Shown here: piece by piece, positions 13 through 6,798 of the stretch | Position numbering within the stretch: the first letter of the stretch is position 1 | Layout of the letters: every line of letters starts with the position of its first letter | IMG/VR virus record: IMGVR_UViG_2740892432_000001 | Length of the DNA stretch: 15,369 bases | Direction: 5' to 3' (one strand) | From: a virus | Taxonomy: Duplodnaviria; Heunggongvirae; Uroviricota; Caudoviricetes | Translations under genes and position numbers: made by a program | Notes under the pieces: model-generated | Databases searched by the model: none | What the model saw: only the letters and a program-made list of their open reading frames with translations | What the model was told of the DNA's origin: nothing

Positions 13-801
13 GTGGGTAGGATCAAGATAGTCTATCGCCCATTACAAGAATTGTCACCGTATGCGCACAACGCCAGGACGCACAGTACTGAGCAGGTGG
101 CACAACTGGTAGAAAGTATTAAGCAATTCGGCTGGACTAATCCGGTGCTGATTGACGAAAAGGGCGAAATTATTGCGGGTCACGGTCGTGTTATGGCGGC
201 TGAAATGCTCAAAATGGATTCTGTTCCGGTCATTGTTCTGTCTGGCCTGACGGATGAGCAGAAAAAGGCGTACCGCCTGGCAGATAATCGCCTGCCGATG
301 AATGCTGGCTGGGATGAAGATCTGTTGCGGATGGAGCTGTCGGACCTAATCAATGCTGATTTTGATGTCTCCCTGACAGGCTTCATCCCGACAGAAATTG
401 ATGAACTGTTGACGGATGTTTTGCCCGGTACAGGAAATGAGGAGGAGCCGTATACGACGAAAATTGATACGCCTGTTTATGAGCCGTCGGGCGGTAAACC
501 GGATATCAGTGAACTGTACGACGATACGAAAACTCAGGAGCTGATCAGCCGGATACGTTCGGCGTCCCTTGAGCCTGATATTGAGAAATTCCTCCTGTGT
601 GCGGCAGAACGTCACACGGTGTTTAATTTCAGCAGAATTGCGGACTATTACGCTCACGCCCCCTCTGAAATTCAGTGTTTTTTCGAGGAGTCGGCGCTGG
701 TGATCATTGATTATCAGCAGGCTATTGAAAATGGATTTGTCCGGATGACGCAGCGCATGGTGGAGATCATGCATGGTGGTGAGGAGGAGGAATATGCGTG
801 A
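13..801 (+). CDS. ParB-like nuclease domain (ParB-N/sulfiredoxin fold) protein with an uncharacterised C-terminal domain; may be 5'-incomplete, since the frame is open to the window edge and the first in-window start is GTG at 13
   Basis: N-terminal ~100 aa (IKIVYRPLQELSPYAHNARTHS...IIAGHGRVMAAEML...AYRLADNRL) matches the ParB N-terminal domain pattern, including a GxGR-like motif. The C-terminal ~130 aa has no motif I recognise. Position just upstream of the terminase genes is common for ParB-like and HNH proteins in phages. Confidence 0.7.
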   Translation: MGRIKIVYRPLQELSPYAHNARTHSTEQVAQLVESIKQFGWTNPVLIDEKGEIIAGHGRVMAAEMLKMDSVPVIVLSGLTDEQKKAYRLADNRLPMNAGWDEDLLRMELSDLINADFDVSLTGFIPTEIDELLTDVLPGTGNEEEPYTTKIDTPVYEPSGGKPDISELYDDTKTQELISRIRSASLEPDIEKFLLCAAERHTVFNFSRIADYYAHAPSEIQCFFEESALVIIDYQQAIENGFVRMTQRMVEIMHGGEEEEYA

Positions 802-1726
802 TGATTTTTGCGCCTTTATTCTGACTCACGGGCGACCGGACAAAGTTCTGACTTACCGGACGTTGCGTCGTGCTGGCTATACCGGGAAAATTTTTATCGT
901 TGTTGATGATGAAGATAAGACACGGCATCAGTACATGGCTGAATTTGGTGAACAGGTGCTGGTGTTTTCCAAAGCCGATATCGCCAGTCGTTTTGACGAA
1001 GTCGATAATTTCTGTGACCGCCGCTCAATTTTTTACGCCCGTAATGCCTGTTTCGACCTGGCAAAACTGGTCGGGTGTAAATACTTCATTCAGCTCGATG
1101 ATGATTATCACGAGTTCCAGTTTCGGGTGGATCGCAACTATGACCAGGCCTATTTTCCGATAAGGAAACTGGATGCGATCCTTTCTGAAATGCTGGCGTA
1201 CTACGAATCAATACCTGCTCTTTCCATCGCTATGTCGCAGGGCGGGGATTTTCTTGGTGACAATGGCGGCCATGCTTCGTGGGTGAAACGCAAGGCAATG
1301 AACAGCTTTATCTGTTCGGTTGATCGACCGTTCTCATTCATGGGGCGCATTAACGAGGATGTGAATACGTACACGAATCTCGGTCGCTGTGGTGAATTGT
1401 TTATGACGATCGGTGCTGTCCAGTTAGGGCAGAAACAGACGCAGAAAAACAGCGGCGGAATGACCGAGCTGTATCTGGATTCCGGAACCTACGTTAAAAG
1501 TTTTTACTCCGTCATGTATGCGCCGTCGTGCGTAAAAATCTCACTGATGGGTGCCAGCCATAAACGCATTCACCATCAGGTCACCTGGAACAACGCTGCA
1601 GTAAAAATCCTTCACGAAAAATACAGGAAGAAGACACCCTGCATATCAATGGGGGTGACAAATGATTCCGTATTCGAAAGTCGAGTCTCTGGCAGCGTGC
1701 CGGATGACTGCACAACAAATCGCTGA
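794..1726 (+). CDS. Putative GT-A fold (GT2-like) glycosyltransferase, apparently cytoplasmic; target unknown
   Basis: ORF 773..1726 in the track. Preferred start is ATG 794, preceded by GGAGGAGGAA at 781-790. It has the GT2 N-terminal pattern (FILTHGRP ... KIFIVVDDEDKT) and a DxD-like motif (FIQLDDDY) about 100 aa in. No obvious transmembrane stretch. Family assignment is by motif only. Confidence 0.5.
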   Translation: MRDDFCAFILTHGRPDKVLTYRTLRRAGYTGKIFIVVDDEDKTRHQYMAEFGEQVLVFSKADIASRFDEVDNFCDRRSIFYARNACFDLAKLVGCKYFIQLDDDYHEFQFRVDRNYDQAYFPIRKLDAILSEMLAYYESIPALSIAMSQGGDFLGDNGGHASWVKRKAMNSFICSVDRPFSFMGRINEDVNTYTNLGRCGELFMTIGAVQLGQKQTQKNSGGMTELYLDSGTYVKSFYSVMYAPSCVKISLMGASHKRIHHQVTWNNAAVKILHEKYRKKTPCISMGVTNDSVFESRVSGSVPDDCTTNR

Positions 1727-1913
1727 CGTTCTGGATGTTGATCTGAACCGACTGAAAGAAAATCGGGAAGCAATGACAGATTTTTATGCGGCCATCCGTA
1801 AGGGCAGAGCGAAAGGTGAAGCCGAGTTACGAGCGGCATTGTTTAAGCTTGCCAGAAAAGGGGATGCCTTTGCTCTGCGCGAACTACTCAGGGTGGATAA
1901 AAATCAGGACTAA
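1662..1913 (+). CDS. Small helix-turn-helix protein upstream of the terminase; possible packaging-associated DNA-binding protein
   Basis: 83-aa ORF with a G-rich RBS (GGGGGTGA) before ATG 1662. Contains an HTH-like segment (MTAQQIADVLDVDLNRL). Overlaps the 3' end of the glycosyltransferase-like ORF by 65 nt. Confidence 0.45.
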   Translation: MIPYSKVESLAACRMTAQQIADVLDVDLNRLKENREAMTDFYAAIRKGRAKGEAELRAALFKLARKGDAFALRELLRVDKNQD

Positions 1914-1916
1914 CTG

Positions 1917-3011
1917 ATGAGCAGACCGGACTGGGGGGCGTTGCAGCAGGAGTATATTGCTGAATACACCCGCTCCGGTATATCTCCGGTGGCATGGTGT
2001 GAAGCAAGGGGACTGAATTACGCAACAGCCCGTCGTTACATCAAAAAAACTCCGAAAAATGCGCAGACAGAAATGTGCAAAACTGCGCAAAAAAGTGCGC
2101 AGAAAAAATCTGCGCAGACTGCACAAAAGCGGAACGAAAAATCTCAGGAAAAAAAGCCAGTATTCGATGCGGGCCTGAATGAGGGCGACGCGGAGGAATT
2201 TTCGTTCTGTCCCGATGAATTCGGCATTTCTGACCAGCAGGCTAAGTTTGCGATGCTTGTTGCTCAGGGTAAAAAGCCGACAGAGGCGTACCGACTAGCC
2301 GGTTATGAGGGGCAAGGTGCGACAGCTAACAGCAACGCCAGTCGTATGCTTAGAAATGCCAGGGTTTTTCGCGCTATCAGCTACTTCCGCAATCAGTACC
2401 AGAAACGCTATACCGCAGACCTGGATTTACTAGTGAGTCAGTTGATGGCTATTGTCCTGGCCGACCCCAATCAGCTTGCACAATTTCGCCGTGTTAACTG
2501 CCGTTATTGCTGGGGCGAGAATCATCTCTACCAGTGGCGCGATATAGCAGAATTCGACAAGGCAGCGGCGCAGGCTTCCAGAGATGGCAAACCCGAACCG
2601 GAATATGGAGGCCTCGGCTTTGTTGATAACGCCATACCCAATCCGGACTGCCCGAAGTGCTGCGGTGAGGGAACGGGACAGCTTTATATGGCTGATACCA
2701 CTCTGCTTGATGGGGATGCGCGGCAATTATATGCAGGGGCAAAATTCGGAAAATTCGGCGTTGAGATCCTGCTGGAGGATAAGGCTGCCGCCCGGCGTGA
2801 ATTGTTGCGTTTGTTTTCTGCTGGCGGGGCTTTATGTGCAGATAAACGGCTACAGGAACTGGAAATTGAACGGCGCAGAATGGAAAACCAGAAGCTGCGC
2901 AAAGAGATCGAAACGGTGGAAGATAATGAACATCCCCAGCCTGTGGCGATCAATATTAATGTGGTTGATGCCAGAGTAAGGAGTGATGAAGATGATCTCT
3001 CCGACGCTTAA
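1917..3011 (+). CDS. Terminase small subunit (TerS) with N-terminal HTH, low-complexity AQ/K linker and C-terminal Cys4 zinc-ribbon-like motif
   Basis: AGGA RBS before ATG 1917. Central segment (FAMLVAQGKKPTEAYRLAGYEG...ANSNASRMLRNARVFRAISYF) matches the terminase small subunit signature of the Terminase_2 type. Has CRYC...CPKCC cysteine pairs. Lies immediately upstream of and overlapping the large subunit. Confidence 0.7.
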   Translation: MSRPDWGALQQEYIAEYTRSGISPVAWCEARGLNYATARRYIKKTPKNAQTEMCKTAQKSAQKKSAQTAQKRNEKSQEKKPVFDAGLNEGDAEEFSFCPDEFGISDQQAKFAMLVAQGKKPTEAYRLAGYEGQGATANSNASRMLRNARVFRAISYFRNQYQKRYTADLDLLVSQLMAIVLADPNQLAQFRRVNCRYCWGENHLYQWRDIAEFDKAAAQASRDGKPEPEYGGLGFVDNAIPNPDCPKCCGEGTGQLYMADTTLLDGDARQLYAGAKFGKFGVEILLEDKAAARRELLRLFSAGGALCADKRLQELEIERRRMENQKLRKEIETVEDNEHPQPVAININVVDARVRSDEDDLSDA

Positions 3012-4293
3012 TGTGCCTCAGGCGCGATTTCTTTCAATGCCCCATAAATTTAAAGCCTATATTGCTGGTTTTGGCTCGGGCAAAACATGGGTTGGGTGTG
3101 GCGGCATATGCAAGGGGATTTGGGAGCATCCAGGTATAAATCAGGGATATTTTGCGCCAACGTATCCCCAAATTCGCGATATTTTTTACCCTACAGTGGA
3201 AGAAGTTGCTGCTGACTGGGGATTGAACGTAAAAATTAATGAGGGAAATAAAGAGGTTCACTTTTATTACGGACGCCAGTATCGGGGAACCACTATCTGC
3301 AGATCGATGGAGAAGCCACAAACGATCGTCGGTTTCAAAATTGGTAATGCGTTGGTGGATGAACTGGACATTTTGCCGAAGGAAAAAGCCAGAACGGCGT
3401 GGCGCAAGATAATTGCACGTATGCGTTATAAGATTGATGGACTTCGCAACGGTATTGACGTTACAACCACGCCGGAAGGATTCAAATTTGTCTACGAGCA
3501 GTTTGTTAAAGCCGTGCGTGAAAAAACAGAGCTGGCCTCACTGTATGGTCTGGTGCAGGCATCTACTTTCGATAATGAAAAGAACCTGCCAGCAGATTAC
3601 ATTCCTTCGCTTCTTGAATCATACCCTCCAGAGCTGATTAAAGCCTATCTTCGAGGACAGTTTACTAACCTGACAAGTGGTACTGTTTACCATCAGTTTG
3701 ACCGGAAACTGAATAATTGCGAAGAAGTGGAGCAGCCAGGGGAGCCGATTTATATTGGGATGGATTTTAACGTTGGAAAGATGGCGGGAATCGTCCATGT
3801 GCTGCGTTTGGGGCTTCCATGTGCGGTAACTGAAATCATCAATGCCTACGATACGCCGGATATGATCCGCATCATTAAAGAACGCTTCTGGCTGTATGAT
3901 GGGAATGATTACCGGAAAGTGAGGGAAATTTATATTTATCCAGATGCTTCCGGGGATTCCAGAAAATCAAGTAACGCAAGTACGACGGATATAGCCCAGC
4001 TTAAGCAGGCTGGTTTTAACGTTGTGGTGAACAGCTCGAACCCGCCAGTAAAAGATCGCGTTAACTCAATGAATGCAATGTTCTGCAATGCCAATGGTGA
4101 GCGTCGCTATAAAGTTAATGTGAAGCGTTGCCCGTTATATGCCGAATCTCTGGAGCAACAGGTCTGGGATGAGAAGGGGGAGCCTGATAAAAAATCTGGC
4201 AATGATCACCCGAATGATGCCGGAGGTTATTTCATCGTTAAGCAATTCCCTATTGTCAAACCGACCGGAAGAGTCACATCACTTCGGATTTAA
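2992..4293 (+). CDS. Terminase large subunit (TerL), ATPase/nuclease
   Basis: Walker A-like GFGSGKTW near the N-terminus; size and position are typical. The track ORF starts at GTG 2983. I prefer ATG 2992, 8 nt after the TAAGGAG RBS at 2977-2983, though 2983 or 2986 are possible. It overlaps the TerS stop. Confidence 0.8.
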   Translation: MISPTLNVPQARFLSMPHKFKAYIAGFGSGKTWVGCGGICKGIWEHPGINQGYFAPTYPQIRDIFYPTVEEVAADWGLNVKINEGNKEVHFYYGRQYRGTTICRSMEKPQTIVGFKIGNALVDELDILPKEKARTAWRKIIARMRYKIDGLRNGIDVTTTPEGFKFVYEQFVKAVREKTELASLYGLVQASTFDNEKNLPADYIPSLLESYPPELIKAYLRGQFTNLTSGTVYHQFDRKLNNCEEVEQPGEPIYIGMDFNVGKMAGIVHVLRLGLPCAVTEIINAYDTPDMIRIIKERFWLYDGNDYRKVREIYIYPDASGDSRKSSNASTTDIAQLKQAGFNVVVNSSNPPVKDRVNSMNAMFCNANGERRYKVNVKRCPLYAESLEQQVWDEKGEPDKKSGNDHPNDAGGYFIVKQFPIVKPTGRVTSLRI

Positions 4294-4295
4294 TT

Positions 4296-5702
4296 ATGGC
4301 TGATATATCAACACCCAACCTCGACTATAACGATATGCTGGAGGCGTGGGATATTAACGACGCACTGATGGGCGGTACGCTTGAAATGCGCAGGCAGGGG
4401 GAAAATTATCTCCCAAAATGGCCTAACGAAGATGAAGACGCTTATAAAAAACGCCTGTCTGTGGCTACGCTACTTCCTGTGTATGAAGAAAGCATCAAGC
4501 AAAATATTGGGCGCATATTTGCAGAGCCGACAGTATTGAGTGAGGAAACGCCGGCAAAAATCAGGGAATATGCAGAAAATATCGACATGGAGGGGAGCCG
4601 ACTGGATGTGTGGGCGCAGCAATTTTTCAGCCTCGCATTTCAGTATGGTGTGGCACATGCGCTGGTGGACTATCCACGAACGGATATGAAAGAGATTCGG
4701 ACAAAAGCCGATGAAAACGCGACCGGTGGTCGTCCGTACGTTACGATGCTGAATCCACGCCAGGTTATTGGATGGAAATCGAAAGTTGAAAAAGGGAAAG
4801 TTGTTCTCACTGATTTGCGTATAAAAGAGGTCATCATTATTGATGGTGATGATTTCGGGCAGAAGAAGGTGGAGCAGATCCGCCATATTATGCCCCGTCG
4901 AGTTGAAATTTATCGACGTAGCGAAGGCACTAATGGCGAATCTGTCTGGACGCTTCATGAGTCATGGAATACCAGCCGTGATGATATTCCTCTGGTAACA
5001 CTGTACACGAAGAAAACAGGATTTATGCGTGGTACACCGCCATTGCTTAATCTTGGCTTGCTGAATATCAAGCACTGGCAAAGCCAGAGCGAGCAGGACA
5101 ATATTCTTCATGTTGCCCGCGTTCCATTGCTGGTGGCCTACGGGCTGGACAGGAATGAAGAACTGACGGTTGGTGCATCCACCGCTACGATTTTTGAGGA
5201 CAGAACAAAAAATGGCCTCGAATATGTTGAACATAGTGGCGCAGCGATAGAATCTGGCGAAACATCACTTGAGAAGCTGGAAAATCAGATGCGTCATGCC
5301 GGCGCTAAACTTCTGCGTGCTGAAAATACATCCACCAAATCTGTTGATCAGACTAATGAAGAGCGAATGCAGGAAAACTCGCCGCTTTATACAATGGCGA
5401 ACTCCCTCGAAGATGCCCTCGATAATATTCTCCAGATAATGGCGGAATGGATCGGAGAGAGTTGCGGTGGCAATGTGGATGTGCGCACTGAACTGGATGT
5501 ATCTGCCCAGGTGTTTGACTCATCCTCCGCGCTGGCTGTTCAGTCATTGCGTCAGGGCGGTGATATACGTCAGATTGATGCGGTTCGGGTGTTGCAGGCG
5601 TTGAAATTTATCGATCAGGATTCCCGTCCAGAGGAAGTGATCGATGAATTAAAAAATCAGAGTGTAATGCTGATGGAAATCAATGATGCAAACCGTGAAT
5701 GA
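4296..5702 (+). CDS. Portal protein
   Basis: 468-aa ORF starting 2 nt after the TerL stop. Size and conserved position (TerL, portal, minor head protein) support the call. No specific motif verified. Confidence 0.65.
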   Translation: MADISTPNLDYNDMLEAWDINDALMGGTLEMRRQGENYLPKWPNEDEDAYKKRLSVATLLPVYEESIKQNIGRIFAEPTVLSEETPAKIREYAENIDMEGSRLDVWAQQFFSLAFQYGVAHALVDYPRTDMKEIRTKADENATGGRPYVTMLNPRQVIGWKSKVEKGKVVLTDLRIKEVIIIDGDDFGQKKVEQIRHIMPRRVEIYRRSEGTNGESVWTLHESWNTSRDDIPLVTLYTKKTGFMRGTPPLLNLGLLNIKHWQSQSEQDNILHVARVPLLVAYGLDRNEELTVGASTATIFEDRTKNGLEYVEHSGAAIESGETSLEKLENQMRHAGAKLLRAENTSTKSVDQTNEERMQENSPLYTMANSLEDALDNILQIMAEWIGESCGGNVDVRTELDVSAQVFDSSSALAVQSLRQGGDIRQIDAVRVLQALKFIDQDSRPEEVIDELKNQSVMLMEINDANRE

Positions 5703-6798
5703 ACGGCTGCGTGATGAATCAATTGCTCATGCAGTCTGGATATCCCGCTATAGCACTGGCGTGGCTGCCAGAATGGTGAAAATACTGAATGACAGCGATG
5801 CGGAACTTACTGCTCGCCTGCTGATAGCACTGGACAGCCTCGATCCAGGTAATTTTACCGTTAAGCGCCTGGAGTCACTTCTGGCGAGCGTCAGAGAGGT
5901 TAACCGCACTGCTATTAACAGCATGTTTACCAGTCTCTCCGGAGAGCTGAACGAGCTGGCAATTTATGAGGCTGGTTATCAGTTAAGTCTGTTTGATTCT
6001 ATGCTACCTGATTTTGTTGCTGATGTTCACCCTCTGGTTGGTATCTCTCCTGATGCACTTTATGCCGCTGCAATGGCGCGACCATTCCAGGGACGACTGC
6101 TCAGTGAGTGGGCCTCAGATCTTGAGGCGGATCGGCTCAGACGCATAACAAATACAGTGCGTCAGGGTTTTTTGCTGGGGGATACCAATGAGCAGATCGC
6201 AAGAAAAATTCGGGGACATGTCAGTAAGGGATTTCAGGATGGTGCATTGCAGATGAGCCGGGCTAATGCGGCCAGCATTGCAAAAACAGCGGTTGGACAT
6301 CTTGCTGCTACTGCCCGTGAGAGTTTTGCCAGCGCGAATAATGATTTGATTAAGGGTAAGCAATGGTTATCAACGCTTGATAATCGTACTACGCCACAAT
6401 GTCGAATCAGGGATCGCCTCAAATATACGCTGAATAATAAACCTGTAGGTCACAGCGTGCCTTATTTGCAGGGGCCGGGAAAAATTCATTTCTGCTGCCG
6501 CTCAACGGAAACGTTCATTCTGAAATCAGCGAAGGAACTGGGTATTGATGTTCGCGATATTTCCCCGGCTGAGCGGGCCAGCATGGATGGCGTGGTGGCC
6601 GGAGATACAACCTACAGGGAATGGTTTTTGCGTCAGCCTTACACCAGACAAAAACAGATTGTGGGGGAAACCCGAGCAAAGCTGATTCGGGATGGTGGTA
6701 TGTCGCCAGATGAATTTTACACCGATAAAGGCGAATGGCTGACGCTGAAGCAGCTCCGTGAGCGTGATGCACAGGTATTCAGAAAAGCAGGGATTTAA
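5683..6798 (+). CDS. Head morphogenesis / minor head protein (Mu gpF / SPP1 gp7-like)
   Basis: 371-aa ORF overlapping the portal stop by 20 nt. Position directly after the portal and overall composition are typical of the Mu F-like family. Followed by an intrinsic terminator. Confidence 0.6.
   Translation: MMQTVNERLRDESIAHAVWISRYSTGVAARMVKILNDSDAELTARLLIALDSLDPGNFTVKRLESLLASVREVNRTAINSMFTSLSGELNELAIYEAGYQLSLFDSMLPDFVADVHPLVGISPDALYAAAMARPFQGRLLSEWASDLEADRLRRITNTVRQGFLLGDTNEQIARKIRGHVSKGFQDGALQMSRANAASIAKTAVGHLAATARESFASANNDLIKGKQWLSTLDNRTTPQCRIRDRLKYTLNNKPVGHSVPYLQGPGKIHFCCRSTETFILKSAKELGIDVRDISPAERASMDGVVAGDTTYREWFLRQPYTRQKQIVGETRAKLIRDGGMSPDEFYTDKGEWLTLKQLRERDAQVFRKAGI

Follow-up and report, generated by a model that had tools for sequence, protein, structure and literature searches.

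How is DNA selected for packaging in a prophage whose small terminase subunit (TerS) is unusually long, carries two pairs of cysteines, and is encoded just behind a second small gene for a helix-turn-helix (HTH) protein? This question is raised by a stretch of 15,369 nucleotides (nt) of Caudoviricetes DNA (IMG/VR record IMGVR_UViG_2740892432_000001), hereafter called the window, which is the late region of a Rac-like lambdoid prophage. The genes in question follow each other in the order ParB_N/YnaK, TAGT/'GREB1-related' glycosyltransferase, 83-amino acid (aa) open reading frame (ORF), 364-aa TerS, large terminase subunit (TerL), and portal. A sequence-only reading of the locus had singled out the 83-aa ORF (1662-1913) and the 364-aa ORF (1917-3011), both of which are present as described, and had suggested either a split or elaborated DNA-recognition apparatus for packaging or a moron insertion that displaced a gene boundary. 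The best explanation of the whole, in which we place moderate confidence, is a four-module TerS whose gene holds a candidate packaging (pac) array, accompanied by an 83-aa gene that is a truncated small terminase of the phrog_309 type and would act as an accessory.

Judged by its profile matches, the 364-aa protein (WP_000089447.1; 1917..3011, + strand) is a small terminase of the Terminase_2 (SF6/SPP1) type. It matches Pfam Terminase_2 (PF03592) with 34.5 bits (cut-off 26.1), whereby residues 122-321 fall on profile positions 19-129, which implies an insertion, and it matches phrog_51 with an E value of 1.7e-75. A PDB sequence search with this TerS alone returned only generic HTH matches or noise. 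A profile of 97 homologues matches the solved SF6 TerS (3zqp, E 4e-17) in two stretches (profile 11-94 on chain 21-103 and profile 189-226 on chain 117-154) and also 4zc3, 2cmp, and the TerS proteins of Pam5, NV1, and PaP3. The position of the gene agrees with this assignment, as terS (stop at 3011) lies directly 5' of, and overlaps, the gene for TerL (start at 2992).

The protein had been called unusually long, and this is borne out by the 164 aa of the solved SF6 TerS chain and the 240-260 aa of most relatives. The extra length consists of ~100 N-terminal residues (an HTH at 1-45 plus a linker), a ~80-residue insert with the four cysteines (Cys4), and a longer C-terminal helix with an acidic tail. 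An AlphaFold2 (AF2) model built from the 97-sequence alignment reached a predicted local distance difference test score (pLDDT) of 84 overall and of 94-98 over residues 100-300; a single-sequence model (pLDDT 45) was discarded. In this model the chain begins with an extra three-helix HTH (TerS 1-45; 1917..2051, + strand; helices 6-20, 24-31, and 35-41; pLDDT 88-96), whose recognition helix reads ..YATARRYIKK, followed by a K/Q-rich, low-confidence linker (46-101; 2052..2219, +; pLDDT 46-67). The canonical Terminase_2 HTH and the oligomerization helices (102-184; 2220..2468, +; pLDDT >94) correspond to 3zqp residues 21-103, and behind the Cys4 insert (185-262; 2469..2702, +) come beta strands at 272-286 and a long charged helix at 289-336 (together 263-336; 2703..2924, +; 3zqp chain 117-154), the latter being the charged coiled-coil tail that the sequence-only reading had described. 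The chain ends in an acidic tail (337-364; 2925..3008, +). Foldseek matches to the model are all small terminases, namely PaP3, NV1, 2ao9, and the SF6 DNA-binding domain in the PDB and the Itty13 TerS (E 5e-19) in BFVD. With the whole chain, no match in the PDB was obtained at E <= 0.001, probably because the model is multi-domain.

The four cysteines stand in two knuckles, CRYC (C195/C198; nt 2499-2510) and CPKC (C245/C248; nt 2649-2660). None of the four varies among the 97 homologues, whose identity is 26-53%, and they recur in 111-124 of 130 representative clusters, which is far more conservation than chance would give; the Cys4 motif noticed from the sequence thus stands, except for the fifth cysteine of 'CPKCC' (C249), which is not conserved. 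In an exhaustive HMMER search, 1,253 clusters at 50% identity matched with E <= 1e-10, mostly of 240-260 aa and aligned at ~104-300, and among the matches listed the cysteines are kept. Named phages with this zinc-type core are F116, Bcep22, BcepIL02, DC1, PEp14, Parlo, SopranoGao, Itty13, and the Yersinia vB_YenM phages. On these alignments the Cys4 motif is a family hallmark, not peculiar to the window locus, and the insert marks a very large TerS clade that includes F116, Bcep22-like, and many enterobacterial phages.

It had also been proposed that the cysteines follow the conserved core. The gaps in both the Pfam and the 3zqp match contradict this: the family profile has ~94 positions where SF6 TerS has 13 residues, which places the insert between the oligomerization helices and the C-terminal strand, that is, inside the core. 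The predicted core would accordingly comprise the HTH, the oligomerization helices, and a beta-barrel strand, with the Cys4 module sitting between helices and strand. Within the module (pLDDT 97-98 throughout) the AF2 model runs from a strand (188-193) through the CxxC knuckle, a helix (210-222), a conserved YGGLGF loop, and the CPxC knuckle to a strand (253-258), ahead of the strands at 272-286 and the helix at 289-336, so that each knuckle adjoins a beta strand. The isolated segment 185-262 has no Pfam match, even at E up to 10, residues 189-261 have no PHROG match, and a Foldseek search of the PDB found no solved structure with the Cys4 insert. A 2022 review of small terminases names zinc fingers only for herpesvirus pUL28 and pUL56 (PMC9611059), and no description of zinc or CxxC in phage small terminases was found in the literature.

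The Cys4 module probably binds zinc. CxxC spacing is also typical of thiol-disulfide motifs, and the cysteines might instead form disulfides or a redox switch. This is improbable, given that the two CxxC/CPxC knuckles, ~46 residues apart and each predicted beside a beta strand, form a classic zinc-ribbon-like arrangement, that the cytoplasm in which TerS works is reducing, and that all four positions are jointly invariant. A structural zinc site would most likely stabilize or decorate the TerS ring or add generic DNA contacts. A part in setting specificity is unlikely because the module does not change between lineages whose pac motif and TerL type differ.

The N-terminal HTH matches phrog_370 and phrog_1711 (phrog_1711 at E 3.8e-5). 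Among 108 loci (L003-L182), the final ~12 TerS residues vary with the TerL cluster, and the classes of N-terminal HTH are shuffled among TerL clusters; TerS is thus a mosaic in which a conserved core joins a putative specificity head to a putative TerL adaptor. As far as these sequence comparisons reach, the gene shows three-part mosaicism and the N-terminal HTH is a portable module. The acidic tail would dock TerL, since it changes with the TerL type, and the HTH at 1-45 would act as the sequence-specific reader. The TerS of phage Rac-SA53 (KU052037, 2755-3783), from an LT-IIa toxin prophage, lacks the N-terminal HTH, and its record labels the protein an O-TerS fusion produced by deletion.

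A candidate for what the HTH reads lies in the DNA that encodes its own linker. Six TGYRCA(R)A hexamers (at 2060, 2074, 2084, 2096, 2111, and 2120; 2060..2127) are spaced by 9-15 bp with A-tracts between them and form a candidate pac or TerS-binding site. TGYRCARA has 10 matches on both strands of the 15.4-kb window, 7 of which fall in this 68-bp array (6 on the + strand and 1 overlapping on the - strand). When codons were redrawn with the amino acid sequence fixed, the array yielded a mean of 1.58 sites versus the 6 observed, a number that 0 of 5000 shuffles reached. Among 21 divergent lineages, the motif count exceeded all 2000 such synonymous-codon shuffles in 19. These counts show the repeats to be under selection at the level of the DNA.

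The hexamers might nevertheless be a by-product of an xAQK low-complexity peptide that spread through replication slippage, in which case they would have no cis role and pac would lie elsewhere. The sites do coincide with AQK/AQT peptide repeats in the disordered linker, and Tandem Repeats Finder reports 12- and 36-nt periods. Such an origin is quite unlikely, as it does not account for the failure of fixed-peptide shuffles to reach the observed counts in those 19 lineages. Moreover, the identical hexamer occurs in two reading frames in the window and in two or three across lineages, where it encodes different residues (ATG-CGC-AAA vs xxT-GCG-CAG, for example), several lineages have sites on both strands whose inverted copies encode unrelated peptides, and site positions are identical between two TerS proteins (those of L077 and L057) that are only 49% identical.

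The array also varies together with the HTH. Six classes of HTH recognition helix pair with six classes of motif: ..ARRYIKK with TGCGCA; ..AKRYIK[IV] with TGCGAA (TTCGCA), often as the palindrome TGCGAATTCGCA; ..ALRYMA.K.GW with GGGGCA; ..STLMDMAKKYGW with GGACGG; ..HTAINQKAKAEGW with GTGGAAAC; and ..GAIRKRAKKNGW with GTACGC. The canonical Terminase_2 recognition helix (ASRL.RN.KV) shows no variation that follows the motif class, and neither does the 83-aa protein. By analogy with phage P1, the array at 2060-2127 is probably a pac-type recognition array: the linker DNA would be pac, and the N-terminal HTH would read its hexamers, in the manner of the P1 pac repeats inside pacA. Several points weigh against this assignment. 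HTH and array are <100 bp apart, and tight linkage alone would make them co-segregate; independent class changes number about six, not dozens; the motifs were picked after inspecting each lineage, which somewhat inflates the shuffle statistics; and a host factor or the canonical HTH ring, not the N-terminal HTH, could be what binds the repeats. At 2096-2116, two palindromic TGCGCA copies and their A/T-rich spacer form an 8-bp inverted repeat that was rated terminator-like for the minus strand, a score to which the array itself probably gives rise.

The second half of the question concerns the small HTH gene (1662..1913, + strand). RefSeq/GenBank annotation gives it 69 aa from the ATG at 1704 and calls it 'hypothetical'. 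In 22 homologues (49-82% identity), the 14 residues 5' of Met15 are conserved (K6, L10, A11, A12, and R14), Met15 itself is often Leu, and the ATG at 1662 has a Shine-Dalgarno 6 nt upstream, read from the sequence as GGGGGTGA (1651..1658, +) and kept in a Pantoea relative (L016). The conserved upstream residues and this ribosome-binding site make the 83-aa start the better one, so the longer call of the sequence-only reading is preferred and current annotation pipelines mis-call the gene.

The affinity of the protein is with another family of small terminases. Its residues 3-77 align to positions 145-218 of the 319 in the phrog_309 profile (E 8.3e-23). In an alignment with phrog_309 members of 110-133 aa, the 83-90 aa proteins end just before an IFWLKT.AGWKET...strand motif, and full-length members extend to profile positions 267-290. 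The nearest named phage relative is the 129-aa TerS of Pasteurella phage Pmp13 (35% identity), which is the only TerS candidate before TerL there. When loci were sampled via the ParB-like protein (with a five-sequence ParB alignment, as alignment A7 was too diverse for the locus scan), many phages showed the order ParB(-methyltransferase), 110-133 aa phrog_309 protein, TerL, with the full-length protein as the sole candidate for TerS. One locus (L126) has ParB, TAGT, a 133-aa protein, and TerL, which is the window order without the long TerS. The phrog_309 homology together with the stop before the WKET motif identifies the 83-aa gene as a C-terminally truncated phrog_309 small terminase, one that retains the HTH with the helices after it but no longer has the WKET...beta-strand part at the C terminus.

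Searches in other directions added little. The 83-aa protein belongs to no Pfam or NCBIfam family, known late activators of the RinA/ArpU type included, and PDB searches with its family profile and with the Pmp13 TerS gave only generic HTH matches or noise. An hhalign comparison of the 83-aa family with the TerS family returned a probability of 0.9%; the protein is thus paralogous to neither HTH of the long TerS. A related prophage (L003) carries a Q antiterminator gene.

The small gene is evidently maintained. Over 49 pairs, the median ratio of nonsynonymous to synonymous substitution rates (dN/dS) is 0.10, 23 alignment columns are invariant, and the length stays at 83-90 aa over at least eight enterobacterial genera (Escherichia, Citrobacter, Serratia, Pantoea, Erwinia, Yersinia, Klebsiella, and Cronobacter). 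These comparisons characterize the gene as a separate, old, still-selected derivative of a phrog_309-type small terminase. It might alternatively be a functionless TerS remnant, cut by the recombination that brought in the zinc-type terS and surviving because it is short and recent. That its alignment covers no more than the first two-thirds of the full-length phrog_309 proteins, that some E. coli prophages (L055, L065, and L066) have recombination or deletion junctions in or beside it, and that viable Yersinia phages lack it would fit such a remnant. Its dN/dS, constant length, and invariant columns make this very improbable, as do versions of only 33-40% identity that still measure 84-86 aa and still stand ahead of a zinc-type TerS, and a good Shine-Dalgarno with tight coupling to terS.

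What the selected gene does is narrowed by its distribution. In 12 of 12 loci found via the 83-aa protein, it lies directly 5' of a zinc-type TerS of 329-377 aa, followed by at least four types of TerL; in one of these loci a 220-aa gene (L022, 4304-4966) is inserted between the two. Starting from the long TerS, the small gene was present in 59 of 80 viral contigs and absent from 21. It is missing from about half of the distant lineages and from the whole Yersinia-type lineage, including isolated phages with the same TerS architecture. Its absence there and the E. coli deletion derivatives indicate that the small gene is not required by the long-TerS architecture. In L055 (2657-3001), trkG is joined to a 3' remnant of the small gene, and P0025 and P0033 are predicted TAGT-TerS fusions of 565 aa without the small gene. 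The sequence of the small protein does not co-vary with motif class or TerL type. Near-identical copies accompany TerS proteins of different HTH and motif classes, on which ground it was rejected as a pac-specificity factor.

The suggestion of a split or elaborated recognition apparatus therefore divides. Elaboration is supported by the extra N-terminal HTH and by a motif array that tracks its recognition helix; a split is doubtful, given a partner that is a truncated homologue of the phrog_309 family, does not co-vary, and is lacking in Yersinia phages of the same architecture. Conservation of the small gene, which the sequence-only reading had proposed to check, holds for the 83-90 aa family in at least eight genera and does not extend to the isolated Yersinia phages and the 21 contigs.

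The presence of the small gene goes with that of an upstream ParB-like gene. Of the dereplicated loci, 40 of 40 that have the small gene also have a ParB_N gene no more than 3 kb upstream, as against 1 of 19 that lack it, an association that holds across N-terminal HTH classes and TerL types. This raises the possibility, which we consider rather unlikely, that the 83-aa protein serves the ParB-like/DNA-modification cassette and not the terminase, as a small HTH partner that positions or regulates a ParB-fold protein on DNA in the manner of KorA and KorB. ParB_N is the sole Pfam match of YnaK (residues 22-89 of 262), and phage ParB-like proteins have been described to activate DNA base-modifying enzymes, in a study that cites KorB clamping KorA on DNA and reports that such proteins co-occur with glycosyltransferases and terminases (PMC13229309). 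On the opposite side, the 83-aa protein is homologous to phrog_309 small terminases that stand directly 5' of TerL, the order from ParB to a phrog_309 TerS is itself conserved, so that the association can be inherited synteny, and the zinc-type TerS equally adjoins the small gene in every locus sampled via the small gene. Likeness in sequence to KorA or to known partners of ParB was not found either, no search aimed at it having been made.

Taking these observations together, the 83-aa protein is most likely, on sequence grounds, a DNA-binding accessory that the phage can do without and that stems from a displaced terminase. It would act either at packaging initiation or for the ParB/DNA-modification cassette. 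This assignment is weakened by the small-gene deletion variants in E. coli (L055, L065, and L066), by the perfect ParB association, which may be inherited synteny only, and by the acidic character of its putative recognition helix (QQIADVLDVDLNRL), which is uncommon among specific readers of DNA. A farther-reaching proposal, and a long shot, is that a large class of enterobacterial prophages carries two TerS-derived genes, a mosaic zinc-module TerS whose portable N-terminal HTH reads a hexamer pac array in its own linker DNA and a domesticated, truncated second TerS that physically couples the ParB-like/DNA-modification cassette (with glycosyltransferase or methyltransferase) to packaging initiation. 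If true, DNA would be marked or modified while it is selected for encapsidation.

The junction with the glycosyltransferase gene had been taken as a possible scar of a moron insertion. The overlap as such is confirmed: the glycosyltransferase ORF ends at 1726, 65 nt into the 83-aa ORF. It is not conserved in gene-order comparison, as the glycosyltransferase stop TGA of the Pantoea relative (L016) lies inside the GGGGGTGA of the small gene, and in two other relatives the overlap measures 4 nt. A junction alignment shows that in the window a lineage-specific 4-nt indel ~25 nt upstream shifts the glycosyltransferase frame past this TGA and adds 22 codons, thereby creating the 65-nt overlap. A moron insertion is not supported as its source, since relatives have the same glycosyltransferase gene, ending in or just before the ribosome-binding site of the small gene. 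This alignment makes the overlap a local accident and not a conserved design or the mark of an insertion.

The surrounding genes are all encoded on the + strand. The cassette upstream consists of the ParB_N (YnaK-like) gene (13..801; Pfam ParB_N, 29.3 bits; phrog_620, E 2e-89) and the TAGT/GREB1-related glycosyltransferase gene (773..1726; Pfam TAGT, E 3.8e-35; PGAP start at 794). This cassette at 13-1726 may represent a module for DNA modification like those reported in PMC13229309. Beside this combination of ParB_N and a TET-associated-type glycosyltransferase, no TET/JBP-type dioxygenase was noticed among the window ORFs examined. In a relative (L003) a ParB-methyltransferase fusion occupies the place of the cassette, and in Rac-SA53 heat-labile enterotoxin genes stand there, directly 5' of TerS. 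Downstream, TerL (2992..4293; Pfam Terminase_6N and 6C; PGAP start with an AAGGAG Shine-Dalgarno) overlaps terS by 20 nt and is followed by the portal protein (DUF4055; 4296..5702; phrog_145, E 3.5e-165). When the genes at 13-5702 were scanned for promoters and terminators, nothing convincing came up between them on the + strand, and a separate transcription unit for the 83-aa gene was rejected on this ground. The next ORF (5683-6798) bears conflicting labels, 'NAD+--asparagine ADP-ribosyltransferase' (ON470590) and 'phage minor head protein' (PGAP).

This type of prophage is common. The first 5.7 kb of the window matches 1583 of 5426 complete E. coli genomes (~29%), with at least 80% of the query covered in 742 of the 1583, and this part is 99.8-99.9% identical to ten records of induced 'vB_EcoS' phages. 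Public records already annotate both genes, and the TerS family was known. The Cys4 insert as a clade hallmark, the mosaic of head, core, and tail, the HTH-tracking hexamer array, and the ParB-tied truncated second TerS were not found described elsewhere.

As packaging in such phages proceeds by the headful mechanism, the pac site sets the start of lateral and generalized transduction, and a 68-bp candidate pac array has now been defined for a prophage of this abundance. The apparent code between recognition helix and hexamer class offers testable predictions of packaging specificity and of which prophages could cross-package. The truncated second TerS is a clean example of how a displaced packaging protein can persist under selection.

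Comparison with known systems places each part of the locus. With the G1P proteins of SF6 and SPP1 (Terminase_2; 3zqp and 4zc3), the window TerS shares the HTH, the helical oligomerization core, the C-terminal strand and helix, and a gene that overlaps TerL. It differs from SF6 in the ~80-residue four-cysteine insert where SF6 has ~13 residues, in ~100 extra N-terminal residues, and in a longer C-terminal helix and tail (364 vs 164 aa). The hexamer repeats of phage P1 were reportedly located within pacA by Skorupski and Sternberg. The window resembles this arrangement of P1 pac and PacA in having several hexamers inside the gene of the recognition subunit, 3' of an N-terminal HTH. The hexanucleotide repeats of P1 pac are also mentioned in PMC11260489. 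The hexamers themselves differ (TGCGCA in the window, TGATCA/G in P1); as TGCGCA contains no GATC, Dam control is not expected. The remainder of the window protein is of the Terminase_2 type, unlike PacA, and tblastn aligns only its N-terminal 42 residues, weakly, with PacA of the P1-like D6 (33% identity, E 0.2), beside the phrog_1711 match of the HTH.

A parallel for the head of the protein is found in the TerS of the Shiga toxin (Stx) phages 933W and VT2-Sakai (phrog_370), whose N-terminal HTH is 39-42% identical over 43 residues. In 933W the HTH is likewise followed by a short repeat array, four copies of GATCAT at exact 12-bp spacing. These four Dam-site repeats (AF125520 [L184], 1642-1683) encode 'IDHEIDHKTDHEIDH' and are likely a pac array resembling P1 pac. 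The 269-aa protein of 933W lacks the Cys4 module, and its remainder belongs to a different phrog family. The TerS proteins of the Bacillus phages Sam46 and Sam112 carry an N-terminal FtsK_gamma domain, and such an added domain can be a separate ORF in other phages (PMC8190038). They are thus comparable to the window TerS as Terminase_2 proteins with an added N-terminal, sequence-reading DNA-binding domain, although that domain is an FtsK winged helix of different fold and origin and a Cys4 insert is not described for them.

The counterpart of the 83-aa protein, finally, is gp50 of Pmp13 (129 aa, phrog_309), with which it has in common the HTH, the helices after it (35% identity over residues 2-72), and the ParB-like gene upstream. 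It lacks the C-terminal 25-45 residues of gp50, which hold the IFWLKT.AGWKET...beta-strand part. Unlike the genes of full-length phrog_309 members, the 83-aa gene does not stand beside TerL, as a second, unrelated TerS lies between the two.

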